Origin: Thermoanaerobaculia bacterium | Lineage (GTDB): Bacteria; Acidobacteriota; Thermoanaerobaculia; Gp7-AA8 | DNA: 64,000 nucleotides | NCBI GenBank assembly: GCA_036398925.1 | Contig: DASWOB010000096.1 | Span: forward strand, 67,285-131,284 | Reading direction: 5' to 3' | Shown here: one piece after another, positions 35,158-59,420 of the stretch | Layout: every line of letters starts with the position of its first letter | How positions within the stretch are numbered: position 1 is the stretch's first letter | The notes under the pieces: generated by a model | Told to the model about the DNA's origin: nothing | What the model saw: the letters and a program-made list of their open reading frames with translations, nothing else | Databases searched by the model: none | Position numbers and translations under genes: made by a program

Positions 35158-35237
35158 TCCGACTCTGTCAATCCATGGGGACGCCCGCCAACCGGCGCGG
35201 CGTCCTTGCATTCCCCACAATCGAGAAGAGGTTTCGT

Positions 35238-36146
35238 ATGACGCAGATTACGGCAGCGATGGTCAAGGAACTGCGCGAGCAGACCGGCGCCGGCATGATG
35301 GACGCGAAGGCGGCGCTGACCGAGGCTGAAGGCAACATGGAACAGGCCACGGTCATTCTTCGCAAGAAGGGTCTGGCCGCGGCCGGCAAGAAGGCGGGCC
35401 GCGTGACCGCCGAGGGAACCGTCCAGGCGTACGTCGACGGCTCCACGGGCGTCCTCGTCGAAGTGAACTGCGAGACCGACTTCGTCGGCCGCAACGAGAA
35501 CTTCAAGTCGTTCGCCGACGAGGTGGCCAGGGTCATCGCGCAGAGCAACGCCGACTCGGTCGAGGCGCTCCTCGCGGAGAACTGGCCCGGCACGAACGAG
35601 CCGGTCAGCCAGAAGGTGGCCGAGAAGATCGGCTCGATCAAAGAGAACATCACCATCCGCCGCTTCGCCCGCTATCAGTCGGAGAACGGCGTGATCGGTT
35701 ACTACATCCACGGCGGCGGCAAGATCGGCGTCATGGTCGAAGTGACAGGCTCGAACCGCGAGCAGGCGGCCGAAGTGGCCCGCGACGTGGCGATGCACAT
35801 CGCCGCCGCGGAGCCGCGCTTCCTCCGCCGCGAGGACGTGACGGAAAAGGACCTCGCCACCGAGCGCGAGATCGCCCTCGACGCCGCGATCAAGTCAGGC
35901 AAGCCGCAGAACATCGCCGAGAAGATGGTCGCCGGCAAGATGGAAAAGTACTACGGCGAGGCCTGCCTCCTCGAGCAGCCCTACATCCGCGACGACAAGC
36001 AGACGGTCAGCCAGTACGTCGGCAGCCGCGCGAAAGAAGCCGGCTGCGAGTTCGTCGTGACCCGCTTCACCCGCTACAAGCTCGGTGAAGGCATCGAGAA
36101 GAAGAGCGAAGATTTCGCGGCGGAAGTCGCGAGCTACATGAAGTAG
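35238..36146 (+). CDS. tsf: Elongation factor Ts
   Basis: ITAAMVKELREQTGAGMMDAKAAL UBA-like N-terminus. Confidence 0.95.
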   Translation: MTQITAAMVKELREQTGAGMMDAKAALTEAEGNMEQATVILRKKGLAAAGKKAGRVTAEGTVQAYVDGSTGVLVEVNCETDFVGRNENFKSFADEVARVIAQSNADSVEALLAENWPGTNEPVSQKVAEKIGSIKENITIRRFARYQSENGVIGYYIHGGGKIGVMVEVTGSNREQAAEVARDVAMHIAAAEPRFLRREDVTEKDLATEREIALDAAIKSGKPQNIAEKMVAGKMEKYYGEACLLEQPYIRDDKQTVSQYVGSRAKEAGCEFVVTRFTRYKLGEGIEKKSEDFAAEVASYMK

Positions 36147-36164: not shown

Positions 36165-39100
36165 TCAATGATCAGGGCGGCCCGGTGACGGGCCGCCTTT
36201 TTGCTGGTCGCGTGGGACGATGCGGATGGCGATCGGATCGCGCTTCTTTGCTTTCCGCTCCGCGAGCTCGCGATACGGCGCGCGGAAGGAGTAGCGGGCC
36301 ACATCGTCGATGTGCTCCTGCAGCCTGCCAACCGGCGCCTCGCCCCGTGCGCTGAGGGCCGCCGCCACGCGATCCCATTCGTCGCGCTCGTCGTGATCGG
36401 CATACGTCGGAGCGAGCAGGTGGACGAACTTCTCGACCTTCAGCGATTCGTGCTCTTTCTTCTTCATCTCGTCGAACACTTCGAGCGAGACGTCGGGCGC
36501 GCCGACCACGATCGCGAGCAGCATCAGCACCGCCTCATAGGGCGCGATGCCGTGGCCCGAAAGGTATTGCGGCAGATCGCCGGGCGCGATGGACGCCCGC
36601 ATGAAGCGGTAGGTGTTGACGAATCGCTTGGCCGTGCGCGGTGAGCGGCTGACCAGCTTCGCGATCGGCGCGCTCTGCATGAAGTCGCGCTCGATCTTCT
36701 GAATCTTCAACTCCTGTGGATTGAGGTCACGTTTCGGCTGGCTGCGTTTGCGCACGCGCGGCACGGCTGTCGTTCGTTCCGGAGTGATCGCGTGAGGATC
36801 GGCCGTGCCTCGGAGCGGGATCTTTTCGGAAGCGCCGTCACTCGCCGCTATGGCGACGTCCTTCGCCACGAGATTGCCGATGTAGCCGGCAGTCGTCTCG
36901 ACGCTGAGCGGCTCAAGCCAGAACGGAACCTGAAAGATCTTCTCCAGGTAGTCGTGCGGTTTCGCGGCGAAGCCCATCACGTCGACTGTCTCCTGCGCGC
37001 CGGTGGTGCGCTCCTGCAGCGCGCGATGCTTCTGGCGCAGCGACTCCGCCACCCAGCGCGCATCGACGCCCACCACCACCACGAAGAGCTTGAACGCGAG
37101 CAGGAGATGAACGGCCTGCAGCACCTCCACCACCCGCTCGGGATGGCAGCGATCGAGGTCGTCGATGTAGAGGACGATCCGGTCGATGCGGAATTCGTTC
37201 GGAATGGGCGACTCGCCCTCCTCCGGCTGCATCAACTCGCTGAGCGTCGAAAAGTCGTTGCGCACCGTGGCCAGCACGCCCAGCAGCCGGCGGTAGTCGT
37301 CGCTTTCCGCGCGCTCGCTGATGAAGCGCGCCAGACGGCGGCCGCGGCTCAACTCGATGAGCTCTTCCTGGGCTTCGGCGACCGCCTTGTCCTTTCGTTC
37401 GAGCTCGGTCTCCGCGGCCTCGACGTTTTTCACCGCGTCGCGGAGGCGCTTGTCGGCCTCGTCGATCTGGCTCTGCCGCTCCCGATCGCGCTCCTGCATC
37501 TTGACGTCAATGGCCTCGCGCGCTCTGTCGATCCTGCTGAAGATCGAACTCACGTGCGCGAGGCGGACGCCGATCCACCCGATGATCGAGGCGATGGGCG
37601 TGAGAATCTGGACGAGCAGAGGATTCAGGTCGAGAGCGAGCGTGTTCAGCGCCTTCACCGCGAAGGGCGTGAGCAGCAGGATGACCAGCAGGCCGAAGAT
37701 CGTCATCGGCCGCCGCATGATCCACGAGCGAATGACCGCGGCGCGTCCGGTCACCGACTGCAGCGATTCCATCGTCCTGCGGATCTCATCCTTGGTCGCG
37801 CTCACTCTGCCGACGCCGAGTTTTCCGAAGAGCGTCTGTAGATCCGCGCGCGTCTGGTCGTCGATCTCCACGAGGTCCCAGACGTCGACGGCCCGCAACC
37901 CGCCGAGGCCCACCGCGCTCGTTTCCGCGAGCTTCTGTTTCGCCTCCAGCGCGTTCGCGGCCTGCGTTCTCGCCACCTCCGCCTTCTGCACTTTCTCCTC
38001 GGCCGCCGCCCGATCGGCCATCCGCTCGTCGATCTGCTTCGCCACCTCGGCCCGGCGCCTGGCGATCTTGTCCTTGTCCTCGCCCGCCAGTTTGAGGTTG
38101 CTGAAGACGTTCTCGACGAGGCTGGCCCAGAGGTTCGACTCCACGTAGTGCCAGGCGTTGAACTCGATCTGCACGATGCGACCGTGGTACGGGCTCTTTT
38201 CGCCCGCATCGGCTGCCTGCGCGCGCCGGGCGCGCTCGTTGACCGCTTCGCGCAGCTTGGCCATGAAGAAGCTCTTGCCCGAGCCCCAGTCGCCGAAGAG
38301 GCCCACCGCCAGCGGCGGCGTGATCGCGTCCGAGGCGATCATCGTGGCGAAGGCCTGCACGTGATCGTCGATCTCGAGCCAGTCCTCGCCGGCGCTCTGT
38401 TCCGCGTCGAAACGGGCGAGGAATGCGGCGTCGGGAAGGCCGAGGAAGCGGCGCCATACCGGGATGAGGTCACCCTCGGTGGGCGGCGCGTTCTGCTGCA
38501 GCCAGTGCAGGTACGCCACGGCGAGGGCATCGGCATCGATGCCCGCCAGGTCCAGAAAATCGCTCGACCCGAAGTCCTCGTGGCGCGCAAGGGCGATGAA
38601 GGCGCCAACCAGATGGCGCGCGGAGATCTCATCGACACGGGTGGCGGTCCGGGCGATCTGTCGCGCGCGTTCGAACACCGCAGTGAGAGGCTGCGTAAAG
38701 CTGTCCACCACGATGGTGTCGCGACCGCGATCGTACGTGCCCATCCACTCGTCGACGGCCTTGCGCCAGCGCTCCTCACCACTGGTTTCGAAGACGTACT
38801 TGCGGAGGAACGAGGGCGCAGTCGGATCCGCGCTCTCTCCATCGACGAGCGCGATGGCCACCGCACTGGTGGTCAGCGGAGGCCAGGCGATGTTGCGCTC
38901 GATGATCATCCTTCCGGCAACGGTCAGGATGAATTGAGCGAGTCCGCTGAAGAGGAACCCCGATTTCTCGGCGCGGATGAGCCCCTCGGCCGGCGATGCC
39001 TCGACCAGCTCCGCCAGACGGCGCGCTGCCTCGTCGCCGTCGAGCCGTGACGCCTCCAGATGATTGTCGACGCCTTCGCTGCGGGTGAGGAGGATCGCCG

Positions 39101-39443
39101 CGGCTACGCCGAGCGCATCGAGCGGACGCGACGGCCACCGCTCGTGGTATGCGTAGAGGGCGCCGCCCGTGAGATCGTTCACGGTAAAGTCAGGCTTCCC
39201 ACCTCGCGACAGCTCCGGTGAGGTGCGCAGGCCGAGATGCGACTCGAACGTCTTGATCTGCAGACCGTTCGTTTCCAGCACCGCGCGCACGAGCGGCTCC
39301 ACCCGCAGCGCGGCGTAGAGCAAGGTCGAGCGCGACACTTCCTCTTTCTTCCTGCGCAGCTTGTGAATCTGCGCCGCGTAATCGAGCAGCCGGTCGAGAT
39401 CGTGGCCCGGCGTGAGTTGCAGATTCTGGACGACAGCGCGCAC
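36165..39443 (-). CDS. KAP-family P-loop NTPase with TM insertion in NTPase domain and N-terminal Clp-N-like repeat region (1092 aa)
   Basis: Start GTG 39443 with GGAGG SD 5 nt upstream (ORF-track start 40022 rejected as it overlaps pyrH). Walker A GLFGDWGSGKSFFMAKL, Walker B LYIDDLDRCHPERV, TM helices FGLLVILLLTPFAV / ILTPIASIIGWIGV between them. N-terminal repeats STLLYAALRVEPLVRAVLETNGL and ISARHLVGAFIALA. Confidence 0.85.
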   Translation of the reverse strand: MRAVVQNLQLTPGHDLDRLLDYAAQIHKLRRKKEEVSRSTLLYAALRVEPLVRAVLETNGLQIKTFESHLGLRTSPELSRGGKPDFTVNDLTGGALYAYHERWPSRPLDALGVAAAILLTRSEGVDNHLEASRLDGDEAARRLAELVEASPAEGLIRAEKSGFLFSGLAQFILTVAGRMIIERNIAWPPLTTSAVAIALVDGESADPTAPSFLRKYVFETSGEERWRKAVDEWMGTYDRGRDTIVVDSFTQPLTAVFERARQIARTATRVDEISARHLVGAFIALARHEDFGSSDFLDLAGIDADALAVAYLHWLQQNAPPTEGDLIPVWRRFLGLPDAAFLARFDAEQSAGEDWLEIDDHVQAFATMIASDAITPPLAVGLFGDWGSGKSFFMAKLREAVNERARRAQAADAGEKSPYHGRIVQIEFNAWHYVESNLWASLVENVFSNLKLAGEDKDKIARRRAEVAKQIDERMADRAAAEEKVQKAEVARTQAANALEAKQKLAETSAVGLGGLRAVDVWDLVEIDDQTRADLQTLFGKLGVGRVSATKDEIRRTMESLQSVTGRAAVIRSWIMRRPMTIFGLLVILLLTPFAVKALNTLALDLNPLLVQILTPIASIIGWIGVRLAHVSSIFSRIDRAREAIDVKMQERDRERQSQIDEADKRLRDAVKNVEAAETELERKDKAVAEAQEELIELSRGRRLARFISERAESDDYRRLLGVLATVRNDFSTLSELMQPEEGESPIPNEFRIDRIVLYIDDLDRCHPERVVEVLQAVHLLLAFKLFVVVVGVDARWVAESLRQKHRALQERTTGAQETVDVMGFAAKPHDYLEKIFQVPFWLEPLSVETTAGYIGNLVAKDVAIAASDGASEKIPLRGTADPHAITPERTTAVPRVRKRSQPKRDLNPQELKIQKIERDFMQSAPIAKLVSRSPRTAKRFVNTYRFMRASIAPGDLPQYLSGHGIAPYEAVLMLLAIVVGAPDVSLEVFDEMKKKEHESLKVEKFVHLLAPTYADHDERDEWDRVAAALSARGEAPVGRLQEHIDDVARYSFRAPYRELAERKAKKRDPIAIRIVPRDQQKGGPSPGRPDH
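36175..36203 (+). terminator. Intrinsic terminator after tsf (gggcggcccg-gtga-cgggccgcc + TTTTT); overlaps 3' end of the antisense KAP gene
   Basis: Hairpin and T-run read directly. Confidence 0.75.
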
Positions 39444-39519
39444 ATCTGCCTCCGGATGAGTTTCGGTTTTCTGGTGTGGGCCGAGTATAGGGCGGTTCTG
39501 TGTGATAAAAAGCGCGCGC

Positions 39520-40239
39520 ATGCCTGACGCGCCCAAATACAAACGCATTCTTCTGAAGTTGTCCGGTGAAGCCCTGATGGGGGGACGCCGTTCCGGGATC
39601 GACGCGGACGTTCTGGCGACGATCGCGGACGAGATCGTGGAAGTGCAGCAGATGGGCGTGCAGATCGCGATCGTCATCGGCGGCGGCAACATCTTCCGCG
39701 GCGTCACCGGCGCGACCCAGGGCATCGACCGGGTGGCCGGCGACCACATGGGCATGCTGGCCACGGTGATCAACGCCCTGGCGTTGCAGGATGCCCTCGA
39801 GCGCCGCAGCATCCCGACGCGCGTGACGACCGCCATCACCATGGCCGAGGTGGCCGAGCCGTTCCTCCGCCGCCGCGCCGTGCGGCATCTCGAAAAGGGA
39901 CGCGTGGTCATCTGCGCGGCCGGCACCGGCAATCCGTTCTTCACCACCGACTCGGCGGCCGCGCTCCGCGCGGCGGAGCTGAAGTGCGACATCATCTTCA
40001 AGGCCACCAAAGTCGACGGCATCTACACGGCCGATCCGGAGAAGGATCCGAACGCCGAGCGCCTGCCGCGCGTCACGTATCAGCGCGTCCTCGCCGATCG
40101 TCTGCAGGTGATGGACGCCGCCGCGATCGACCTCGCCCGCGGCAGCTCGATTCCGATCTATATTTTCTCGCTGCGTGAGAAGGGCAACATCAAGCGAGCC
40201 CTCCTGGGTGAGGATGTCGGCTCGATCGTTTCTGATTAG
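39520..40239 (+). CDS. pyrH: UMP kinase
   Basis: KYKRILLKLSGEAL, VIGGGNIFRG. Confidence 0.95.
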   Translation: MPDAPKYKRILLKLSGEALMGGRRSGIDADVLATIADEIVEVQQMGVQIAIVIGGGNIFRGVTGATQGIDRVAGDHMGMLATVINALALQDALERRSIPTRVTTAITMAEVAEPFLRRRAVRHLEKGRVVICAAGTGNPFFTTDSAAALRAAELKCDIIFKATKVDGIYTADPEKDPNAERLPRVTYQRVLADRLQVMDAAAIDLARGSSIPIYIFSLREKGNIKRALLGEDVGSIVSD

Positions 40240-46477: not shown

Positions 46478-46553
46478 GCTGGCATAGCTCAGTTGGTAGA
46501 GCAGCTGATTTGTAATCAGCAGGTCGCGGGTTCGAGTCCCGTCGCCAGCTCCA
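46478..46553 (+). tRNA. tRNA-Thr (anticodon UGU)
   Basis: Cloverleaf: TAGCTCAGTTGGTAGAGCA D-arm, anticodon loop tTTGTAa, GGTTCGAGTCC T-arm, encoded CCA. Confidence 0.9.
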
Positions 46554-46575
46554 GAAGCAACGGGAGTCTCAGCGT

Positions 46576-46662
46576 GGAGAGATGGCTGAGCGGCTAAAAG
46601 CAGCAGACTGTAAATCTGCCGGTCCATGACCTACGGAGGTTCGAATCCTCCTCTCTCCACCA
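46576..46662 (+). tRNA. tRNA-Tyr (anticodon GUA), long variable arm
   Basis: GGAGAGA...TCTCTCC acceptor, loop ctGTAaa, GGTTCGAATCC. Confidence 0.9.
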
Positions 46663-46670
46663 CTAGAAAC

Positions 46671-46760
46671 AGCTCTTGGCTGTTGGCTCTTAGCTCTTAG
46701 GGAAGGCCGTCGCGCGAGGCCGTCGTTCTCCTAAGAGCTAACAGCTAAGAGCCAACAGCT
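46671..46760. repeat. Hairpin element (AGCTCTT/GGCTGTT units) between tRNA-Tyr and tRNA-Gly
   Basis: agctcttggctgttggctcttagctcttaggg - loop with cgcgcg - ctaagagctaacagctaagagccaacagct. Confidence 0.85.
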
Positions 46761-46763
46761 CGT

Positions 46764-46838
46764 GCGGGAGTAACTCAGGGGTAGAGTCACAGCCTTCCAA
46801 GCTGTTGGTCGCGGGTTCGAATCCCGTCTCCCGCTCCA
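46764..46838 (+). tRNA. tRNA-Gly (anticodon UCC)
   Basis: Loop cTTCCAa, GGTTCGAATCC T-arm. Confidence 0.9.
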
Positions 46839-46854
46839 AAAGCCGGAAATCAGT

Positions 46855-46930
46855 GCCCTCGTAGCTCAGGGGTAGAGCACGTCCTTGGTAAGGACGGGGT
46901 CACGAGTTCAAATCTCGTCGAGGGCTCCAT
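46855..46930 (+). tRNA. tRNA-Thr (anticodon GGU)
   Basis: Loop cTTGGTAa, GTTCAAATC T-arm. Confidence 0.9.
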
Positions 46931-46956
46931 TTACTAAAGTCAGGCGGAATCAGTCA

Positions 46957-47115
46957 TGGCGGCAACGCGCGAGATCATCACGCTGGCCTGCACCGAGTGC
47001 AAGCGGCGCAACTACACGACGACGAAGAACAAGAAGACCACGACCGAGAAGCTCGAGCTGAAGAAGTTCTGCCGGCACGATCGGAAGCGGACCGTTCATC
47101 GCGAGACGAAGTAAC
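46957..47115 (+). CDS. rpmG: 50S ribosomal protein L33
   Basis: 52 aa [27 protein letters not shown]... (below ORF-track length cutoff, translated by hand). Confidence 0.9.
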
Positions 47116-47177
47116 CACATCTCCTCAGGGAATGAACGAGGGGGCATCCGCCTTCTCAGCAGTTTGTGTCGCTCTGC

Positions 47178-47253
<76 letters not shown>

Positions 47254-50536: not shown

Positions 50537-50679
50537 TCGTCTCTGTAGAATAGAAGTTCCCGGAGTCGGAAAGGGGGGGAGCGGCCCTTTCCACATGGCT
50601 CCACCCCCGCATGTCACTCCTGGCGTTGCCTGCCCGGAGCCCTGCCTGATGCAGCACCACCACAATCTAAGGAGTTCGA

Positions 50680-54966
<4,287 letters not shown>

Positions 54967-54972
54967 GAACGC

Positions 54973-55161
54973 ATGGGACGTAAAGTGACGACTCTCGCGA
55001 AAATGCCGAACCCCTCGTGCCGTGCCTGTCACGGCATGGGGGCCATCCGCATGACGGCGCATTTCCATACCGGCGACCACGAGTGGGAAGCGCCGTGCTG
55101 GGAGTGCTTCGGCACCAGCGTCCGCGTCCATTTCCCGAAGCCGCAGAGTACGGACAACTAA
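54973..55161 (+). CDS. Small Cys-rich (CxxC-H...CxxC) hypothetical protein between rpoB and rpoC
   Basis: 62 aa, GC3 ~80%, AGGAA upstream, ends TAA 24 nt before rpoC SD. Confidence 0.5.
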   Translation: MGRKVTTLAKMPNPSCRACHGMGAIRMTAHFHTGDHEWEAPCWECFGTSVRVHFPKPQSTDN

Positions 55162-55187
55162 TTCGCCCTGACTAAGGGAGGCGCAAA

Positions 55188-59420
<4,233 letters not shown>

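Follow-up and report, generated by a model that had tools for sequence, protein, structure and literature searches.

Between the translation genes tsf and pyrH of a Thermoanaerobaculia bacterium lies, in antisense orientation, a long gene that is the subject of this analysis. It was found in a 64,000-nt stretch of contig DASWOB010000096.1 (assembly GCA_036398925.1), which we call the window; all coordinates in the following are positions in this window, with the strand given as (+) or (-). The gene encodes an NTPase of the KAP family, a family named after Kidins220/ARMS and PifA. According to structure prediction, its product is a membrane-anchored P-loop NTPase, in which a tandem pair of domains resembling the N-terminal domains of Clp/Hsp100 proteins (Clp-N) precedes the P-loop core, a coiled-coil stalk with a membrane hairpin is inserted into this core, and a helical domain follows at the C-terminus. 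In the literature that we searched, we found no description of such a combination of tandem Clp-N domains with a KAP NTPase. The interpretation that we favour, with a confidence somewhat above even, is that of a single-gene conflict or anti-phage system.

The gene is intact, its translation yielding a stop-free reading of 1092 residues, and it is bordered by tsf at 35175-36146 (TIGR00116, 1.7e-97) and by pyrH, whose ATG lies at 39520 (TIGR02075, 8.4e-95):

36165..39443 (-): complete gene for a KAP-family NTPase of 1092 aa, beginning with GTG and ending with TGA, matching Pfam KAP_NTPase
39449..39453 (-): Shine-Dalgarno motif GGAGG, read from the sequence, 5 nt before the GTG

The position of this minus-strand gene, its GTG start with a GGAGG motif and the distance of 77 nt to the pyrH start had been described in an earlier, purely sequence-based reading of the window (the original prediction), and we confirm them here. 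We take the GTG at 39443-39441 to be the true start because of the GGAGG at 39453-39449, because the alignments of all 23 full-length orthologues begin at this codon, and because the records of a Thermoanaerobaculia metagenome-assembled genome (MAG) include an identical protein of 1092 aa (P0001). A CCTCC or CCCCC block occupies the equivalent Shine-Dalgarno position in five of eight loci with a KAP gene at this site (the window, L001, L002, L006 and L007). The longest mechanical open reading frame (ORF) reaches further, to an ATG at 40022; we rejected this start, as the extra part runs antisense to pyrH and has no orthologue support, and as it is the GTG that has the Shine-Dalgarno motif.

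The assignment to the KAP family, likewise part of the original prediction, was borne out by profile search. Pfam KAP_NTPase (PF07693) matches residues 363-949 over profile positions 6-290 of 293 with 105.4 bits (gathering cutoff 20; E 4.3e-30), and it also matches all 27 full-length homologues. A motif search located Walker A (GDWGSGKS) from residue 384 onward and Walker B (VLYIDDLDRC) from residue 757 onward, with ~370 residues separating the two. In an alignment of 65 family members, G384, W386, G387, G389 and K390 as well as D761, D762, D764, R765 and C766 are invariant, and the KAP engine as a whole contains 61 invariant columns. Between the Walker motifs, where transmembrane helices had been expected, hydropathy analysis detects two hydrophobic segments (~578-604 and 606-630, with Kyte-Doolittle peaks of 2.2 and 1.8). 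Together with models obtained with AlphaFold2 (AF2), these data delimit the following parts of the protein:

38988..39422 (-): Clp/Hsp100 N-domain-like domain 1, residues 8-152, eight helices (AF2, weak profile match)
38478..38972 (-): Clp/Hsp100 N-domain-like domain 2, residues 158-322, eight helices (AF2 and profile match)
38076..38369 (-): first half of the P-loop core with Walker A (residues 384-391 at 38271-38294; motif search and AF2)
37350..38075 (-): predicted P-loop insert, comprising helices 457-518 and 529-577, the hairpin and the return helix 610-698 (hydropathy and AF2)
37548-37712 (-): predicted membrane hairpin, residues 578-632 (hydropathy and AF2)
36846..37349 (-): second half of the P-loop core with Walker B (residues 757-766 at 37146-37175; motif search and AF2)
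36243..36713 (-): C-terminal helical domain, residues 911-1067 (AF2 helices 916-1067, confidence mostly 85-95)
36165..36242 (-): disordered C-terminal tail, residues 1068-1092 (confidence <50 for 1069-1092); its codons cross the tsf terminator

The confidence values are those of the predicted local distance difference test (pLDDT), which is 80 for the full-length model, computed from an alignment of 65 relatives. In this model, the P-loop strand (378-384) and the subsequent helix (390-410) are followed by a 62-residue helix (457-518) that leaves the core, a helical bundle (529-577) and the two hairpin helices (579-601 and 610 onward), the second of which forms an 89-residue return helix reaching residue 698. 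The chain then continues through the Walker B strand (755-761), a disordered linker (867-907) and the helical C-terminal domain (911-1067) into the disordered tail. The coiled-coil stalk and the two-helix hairpin thus make up an insert of ~280 residues between Walker A and Walker B, within the NTPase domain itself. As modelled, the membrane hairpin is the tip of the inserted stalk, its two helices are predicted to be transmembrane, and the stalk would keep the P-loop at a distance from the membrane. With its profile match, its Walker motifs, its inserted transmembrane helices and a variable accessory domain fused to the engine, the protein resembles other members of the KAP family, from which it differs by the unusual length of the insert and by the tandem Clp-N pair.

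This pair lies within the ~383 residues that precede the P-loop, a stretch that the original prediction had put at ~430 residues and in which it had seen two repeats resembling the Clp N-terminal domain. The Pfam Clp_N profile hidden Markov model (PF02861), proposed then as a check, does not match the query at E<=1, nor its N-terminal 360 residues at E<=0.1, and it recognises only two of 28 relatives, weakly (best E 0.0014). As this model missed the query, we resorted to structure prediction and to searches of PDB sequences with family profiles. An AF2 model of residues 1-360, with a pLDDT of 89.9 and a predicted template modelling score (pTM) of 0.88, consists of two successive eight-helix blocks. 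In a Foldseek search of the PDB, its best 50 matches are all Clp/Hsp100 N-domains (ClpC, ClpC1, ClpB, Hsp104, ClpV, ClpT1 and SMAX1), with target-normalised template modelling scores (TM-scores) of 0.58-0.79 among the isolated N-domain entries and of up to 0.81 with the full-length model, at a root mean square deviation (rmsd) of ~3 Å; for the N-domains of ClpC, the TM-score is 0.70-0.81, again at ~3 Å. Since the Foldseek output carries no query ranges, this fold match is not assignable to domain 1 or domain 2. The profiles do tell the two apart: that of domain 2 (158-322) matches Hsp104 along the entire N-domain (E 1.5e-7 and 1.1e-6), as well as the N-domains of ClpB and ClpA, and that of domain 1 (8-152) matches ClpB N-domains only, marginally (E 0.008). 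An alignment of domain 1 with domain 2 in hhalign covers just 33 columns at low probability, and an internal duplication is not demonstrable by sequence. The resemblance to Clp N-domains therefore stands, in fold and in profile; what had been taken for two repeats of a single domain, however, is, according to the model, a pair of separate, complete domains with four repeats in all.

In Clp ATPases, the N-domains are binding platforms for peptides and proteins, and they are classic modules of proteostasis. The module described here departs from this setting in being a tandem pair, in sitting on a KAP rather than an AAA+ (ATPases associated with diverse cellular activities) engine, and in having diverged too far for Pfam Clp_N. 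It is also rare: a phmmer search of 1.84 billion cluster representatives returned 35 proteins at E <= 1e-3, nearly all of them of KAP size (1000-1300 aa).

Several characterised systems share parts of this architecture. The best PADLOC matches are QatA, PDC-S20, PifA and PDC-S49, all of them partial and well below the family cutoffs. QatA provides the best match in both PADLOC (1.8e-20) and NCBIfam (3.6e-27), over the Walker B half; unlike in QatABCD, however, no qatB, qatC (QueC-like) or qatD (TatD) is adjacent, and tsf and pyrH are found instead, also in the orthologous loci. These partial matches below the cutoffs and the absence of partner genes place the protein outside every named defence system. 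PifA of the F plasmid, which excludes phage T7, belongs to the KAP family as well, and its PADLOC model matches the Walker A region (E 6.9e-8). It lacks Clp-N domains and is reported to lack transmembrane helices (PMC13001434). Nonetheless, PifA is described as a defence that consists of a single gene and acts at the membrane (PMC13001434, PMC13552941), where it leads to depolarisation and nucleotide leakage (PMC13001434), and single-gene KAP NTPases have been found to protect against phage in a Walker B-dependent manner (PMC13552941). Tmn, another single-gene system, has two transmembrane helices inserted as a hairpin in its P-loop domain (PMC13001434; 10.1101/2022.08.21.504612); it is now assigned to the YobI family, its cytosolic arms serve as sensors of a phage protein, and it is an exporter of Mg2+ (PMC13001434). 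Its sensor, however, is a solenoid (helical) arm rather than a Clp-N module, and its P-loop family is not that of the window protein, which belongs to KAP.

A further likeness emerged from a Foldseek search of the PDB with the full-length model. Its NTPase part matches the rings of RdrA from the RADAR system, solved as heptamers and tetradecamers, with a probability of 0.99-1.0 over 370-460 aligned columns, the TM-score of this match being low (0.15-0.21). RdrA is the solved match besides local ones to full-length Hsp104 and ClpC, and it suggests that the window protein may oligomerise into rings. RdrA differs in having neither a membrane insert nor Clp-N domains, and the window locus does not encode the deaminase partner RdrB. 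The matches to full-length Hsp104 and ClpC, which top the Foldseek results, share with the model the order of N-domain, P-loop and inserted coiled coil; their global rmsd of ~50 Å is meaningless, and a shared N-domain together with generic P-loop and coiled-coil elements may suffice to produce them.

To follow the gene among relatives, the genomic context was taken for 12 full-length orthologues, and additional tsf loci were obtained from GTDB species representatives, where a Tsf-based scan, which is not a full census, covered four true relatives and 76 unrelated bacteria. The related sample thus comprises 13 tsf-pyrH loci, all on MAG contigs. Nine of them are occupied, the window included; in the eight others (L001, L002, which is also represented by contig L003, L006, L007, L008, L009, L172 and L173), all from Thermoanaerobaculia, the KAP gene has the identical site and orientation, and its product is 35-45% identical to the window protein. 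For the six occupied loci that were scored, identity to the window is 67-75% in Tsf, 82-94% in PyrH and 86-94% in RpsB. No KAP gene is present in L010-L013, the species representatives that the Tsf-based scan found to be closest; their tsf-pyrH gap measures 2-209 bp, and a search of these four intergenic regions for KAP remnants gave chance-level matches only (E >= 0.015, at scattered positions). One of these empty loci, L010, ties with the occupied locus L007 as the closest core-gene relative of the window, at 85% identity. Given this patchy presence, the KAP gene is not a core gene. Among the unrelated bacteria, pyrH lies within 600 bp of tsf in 51 of 70 informative loci, so that the original description of this adjacency as nearly universal was overstated.

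At least five orthologues (P0009, P0002, P0023, P0024 and L090) reside at other sites, among them P0002, the closest homologue of the window protein (50% identity). In a neighbour-joining tree of the orthologues, the alleles from the tsf-pyrH site are spread over the whole tree, with some other-site alleles nested among them; as the site alleles span the entire tree, the slot must have been occupied for a long time. A scan of metagenome contigs with the KAP alignment returned, among the matches listed, mostly distant KAP proteins (28-37% identity). None of 80 more distant family members, among the matches listed, lies near tsf or pyrH, and no further occupied locus was found. The surroundings of the off-site orthologues differ from case to case. 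On L004 (4010-5580 and 10990-12618), P0009 adjoins three tandem genes with phage-tail Collar domains, a DUF4062 gene and a MazE antitoxin gene; DUF4062 is reportedly, to go by the title of a 2026 bioRxiv preprint, the Evangelion defence family. P0024, the most divergent orthologue, is flanked on L174 (9494-14091) by opposite-strand genes for a patatin, an S8 peptidase and a protein with a metallo-beta-lactamase fold, which may represent another conflict-type neighbourhood. On L170 (3758-5360), P0002 is followed by two tightly spaced genes on the same strand (291 and 246 aa) that match no Pfam family; these possible partners are missing from the tsf-pyrH site.

The constancy of the site raises the possibility of a lineage-specific cellular role. 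The protein would then be a membrane-tethered NTPase that binds clients or Clp adaptors through its Clp-N domains, for instance in the quality control of membrane proteins or in a surveillance linked to ribosomes or translation, and it would have been kept beside rpsB-tsf and pyrH-frr through a functional or regulatory link. The shared position and orientation in nine contigs, maintained at a KAP identity of just 35-45%, speak for such a role, as do the strong conservation of the engine, the proteostatic nature of Clp N-domains and the local likeness of the model to Hsp104 and ClpC, with their N-domain and P-loop with inserted coiled coil. It is harder to reconcile with the absence of the gene from four of the 13 related loci, including L010, which is as close to the window in its core genes as the occupied L007, with the orthologues at unrelated sites, and with the 80 more distant members, none of which, among those listed, is near tsf or pyrH. 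The allelic pattern described below, in which near-identical genomes carry strongly different KAP proteins and the domains that would bind clients belong to the least conserved regions, also argues against it, and we regard a cellular role as unlikely.

The same patchiness would suit a different account, in which a mobile defence gene was recently inserted into the window genome at an integration hotspot, as the original prediction had proposed. Two occupied loci carry additional genes in the interval: in L006 (9198-9938), a Phd/YefM antitoxin gene (Pfam 4.6e-9) and a 163-aa ORF lie between the KAP gene and tsf, and in L173 (4993-5973), an aldo-keto reductase gene (Pfam 2.5e-83) on the KAP strand lies between pyrH and the KAP gene. 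The antitoxin and reductase genes show that the interval accepts unrelated cargo, including some of the toxin-antitoxin type; the 163-aa ORF of L006, which has no Pfam family match, overlaps the 3' end of the KAP gene by ~145 nt. Such cargo would fit a recent insertion, as would the off-site position of the closest homologue, P0002. Yet the GC content of the gene (0.64-0.67) is that of its flanks, the intergenic spacers on its two sides measure only 18 and 76 nt, and there is no integrase at the site and no tRNA either, the nearest tRNAs being ~7 kb off (flanking repeats were not searched for). The presence of the gene at the same site in eight other contigs, the spread of the site alleles over the whole orthologue tree, which makes the occupancy old, the lack of detectable KAP remnants in the empty sites, and a promoter-like motif on the KAP side that is common to all occupied loci examined likewise oppose it, and we consider a recent insertion decidedly improbable. 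What survives of the hotspot idea is a variable slot, empty in four loci and with extra cargo in two. The comparison of the interval in relatives, which the original prediction had called for, thus shows a gene that is old at its site, as had been envisaged for an ancestral gene, and that is nevertheless patchy rather than core. In its conserved flanks, variable content, empty sites and occasional cargo, the slot resembles the defence hotspots flanked by core genes in Pseudomonas aeruginosa (PMC10250203), from which it differs in that its occupant is nearly always a single gene whose family and orientation do not change. For this reason, its behaviour is closer to that of a multi-allelic locus than to that of a mixed island.

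This allelic character becomes apparent when the divergence of the KAP proteins is set against that of the core genes (Tsf, PyrH and Frr together in the case of L002 and L009):

L002 / L009: core identity 96%, KAP identity 36%
L001 / L006: core identity 93%, KAP identity 58%
L002 / L006: core identity 90%, KAP identity 65%
window / L007: core identity 85%, KAP identity 44%

KAP identity is not monotonic with core identity, and the KAP tree and the core-gene tree disagree. Between L002 and L009, the flanks retain 91-96% nucleotide identity up to the borders of the KAP gene, where the similarity breaks; inside the gene, just two short segments of ~72% identity can be aligned, and the P-loop cores of the two proteins are 59% identical, near the family-wide average. 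To judge from these comparisons, old allelic lineages were probably exchanged or retained in a fixed slot, a pattern that uniform fast evolution would not fit. Strongly different versions of one gene are also typical of immune-type genes. The most likely route of exchange is homologous recombination in the conserved flanks.

Within the protein, the variation is distributed unevenly, as seen in the mean identities among 24 orthologues:

P-loop core: 67% in the first half, 64.5% in the second half
C-terminal domain: 43%
Coiled-coil arms: 34-37%
Clp-N domains: 31% in domain 1, 28.5% in domain 2
Membrane hairpin: 27%

In more distant relatives, the engine and its insert are kept, and the N-terminal module is replaced by TIR, SEFIR, trypsin-like protease, EVE, DUF4062, peptidoglycan-binding and other domains. 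NTPase-based immune proteins usually follow a design in which a conserved switch is combined with swappable, fast-diverging end modules. A link to defence, which the original prediction had raised, is made plausible by these TIR, protease and EVE modules and by the PADLOC matches to QatA, PDC-S20 and PifA.

The slot itself lies within a series of genes with strong NCBIfam matches throughout, in the order coaE, folD, rpsI, rpsB, tsf, KAP gene, pyrH, frr, ispD, gltX and pyrD. Its borders are marked by three elements:

36174..36203 (+): tsf intrinsic terminator, an 11-bp GC hairpin at 36174-36199 with a T-tract to ~36203 (RNAfold)
39484..39489 (-): putative KAP -10 box TATACT (AGTATA on the plus strand), from comparative alignment
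39501..39509 (+): extended -10-like box TGnGATAAA (in relatives, TGGTATAAA), which marks the slot's right border, 10 nt before the pyrH ATG

The KAP stop codon (36165-36167) is 18 nt from that of tsf, and the terminator falls within the last ~13 codons of the KAP ORF. This overlap, reported in the original prediction, holds for the window and is peculiar to it: in L001, L002, L007 and L008, the KAP ORF ends shortly before it would reach the hairpin. Downstream of tsf, equivalent hairpins are seen in these four loci and in the empty L010 and L012, and they are clear in five of six occupied junctions examined. The empty sites consist of the tsf stop, a GC hairpin with a T-tract, and a TG(G/A)TATAA box ~10-13 nt before the pyrH ATG; the hairpin is not evident in all four of them, L013 having 2 bp between tsf and pyrH. 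A scan for consensus sigma-70 promoters around the KAP gene returned nothing (the same scan did not list the tsf hairpin either), and the promoter-like boxes were therefore taken from the comparative alignment. The pyrH box, a putative promoter, is present in all eight occupied loci examined and in the empty L010, L011 and L012. Its position 10-13 nt before the pyrH ATG points to a separate promoter for pyrH in this lineage, giving rise to a leaderless or near-leaderless mRNA. On the KAP side, the motif AGT(A/C)TA, the candidate -10 box of the KAP gene, occurs in all eight occupied loci examined and in none of the four empty intergenic regions. The slot is a natural boundary between the rpsB-tsf and pyrH transcription units, and an occupant therefore need not disturb either neighbour.

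Nevertheless, the arrangement could be thought to serve transcription, with convergent KAP transcription into tsf and a divergent promoter region shared with pyrH tuning the translation-factor genes, and the protein being secondary. No U-tract terminator follows the KAP stop, so that a transcript could run antisense into tsf, and the KAP and pyrH promoter-like boxes are within ~25 nt of each other. We find this account very improbable, however, as a 1092-codon ORF with invariant catalytic motifs is kept in all orthologues, and as relatives without the KAP gene retain the terminator and the pyrH box, which means that tsf and pyrH do not need it. A regulatory coupling to the translation-factor genes had been the other suggestion of the original prediction; none of our results, which include no test aimed at it, hints at such a coupling.

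Elsewhere in the window, which is otherwise rich in housekeeping genes, a cluster of five tRNAs (Thr, Tyr, Gly, Thr, Trp) is found at 46478-47253, and near it lie two very long ORF pairs (~1400-1500 aa), at about 50600-59400.

If the gene is a single-gene conflict or anti-phage system, as we favour, its mode of action could be pictured as follows. The fast-diverging, cytosolic Clp-N pair would serve to recognise a protein that is aberrant or comes from an invader, and in response the NTPase would switch to an oligomeric state that depends on NTP. The membrane hairpins, clustered in this way, would then perturb the membrane or its ion homeostasis and stop the infection, a course for which the KAP protein PifA and Tmn of the YobI family offer reported parallels. 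The slot in Thermoanaerobaculia would have been long occupied and repeatedly emptied, and its alleles would have been swapped by homologous recombination through the conserved flanks; emptying and allele swapping together would lead to the coexistence of deeply diverged alleles among close relatives.

A number of points weigh against this interpretation. The sensor role of the Clp-N pair and the effector role of the hairpin are deduced purely from the logic of the domains. There is no recognisable defence island around the gene, whose neighbours are housekeeping genes, and the conserved spot beside translation genes in nine diverged contigs could reflect a lineage-specific cellular function. 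Moreover, the curated thresholds failed for every named defence protein tested: against QatA, the window protein reaches 95.3 bits, compared with an equivalog cutoff of 600; the match to PifA is limited to residues 353-500 and to profile positions 16-152 of 720; and Tmn is not among the 14 PADLOC matches at E<=1, the presence of a Tmn model in the library not having been separately confirmed. Finally, the sample of 13 related loci is small.

A more specific variant, which we think quite unlikely, would see in the tsf-pyrH slot a single-gene immune locus under long-term balancing selection, with a trans-species polymorphism comparable to that of the major histocompatibility complex or of plant NLR (nucleotide-binding leucine-rich repeat) genes, and in the protein a decoy or guard. 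Recombination through the ultra-conserved translation-gene flanks would maintain the polymorphism. As a novel type of sensor, the tandem Clp-N module would monitor the ligands of Clp N-domains (adaptors, proteins that are tagged or unfolded, or Clp inhibitors from phages), and the proteostasis machinery, guarded or mimicked in this way, would be coupled to a shutdown at the level of the membrane.

Should the anti-phage interpretation prove true, the protein would represent a new architecture among the membrane-embedded NTPase defences, which are poorly understood, combining a tandem Clp-N sensor with a KAP engine and a stalk and hairpin effector, and it would show that immune sensors can be recruited from among Clp-type N-domains. 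If, on the other hand, the gene has a cellular function, it would stand for an unrecognised membrane-linked proteostasis or translation factor in Acidobacteriota. The locus itself is a clean, natural one-gene multi-allelic slot between highly conserved translation genes and as such offers a convenient view of how homologous recombination turns over alleles in an uncultured phylum, with the rpsB-tsf and pyrH-frr flanks providing a practical marker for retrieving its allelic diversity from metagenomes.

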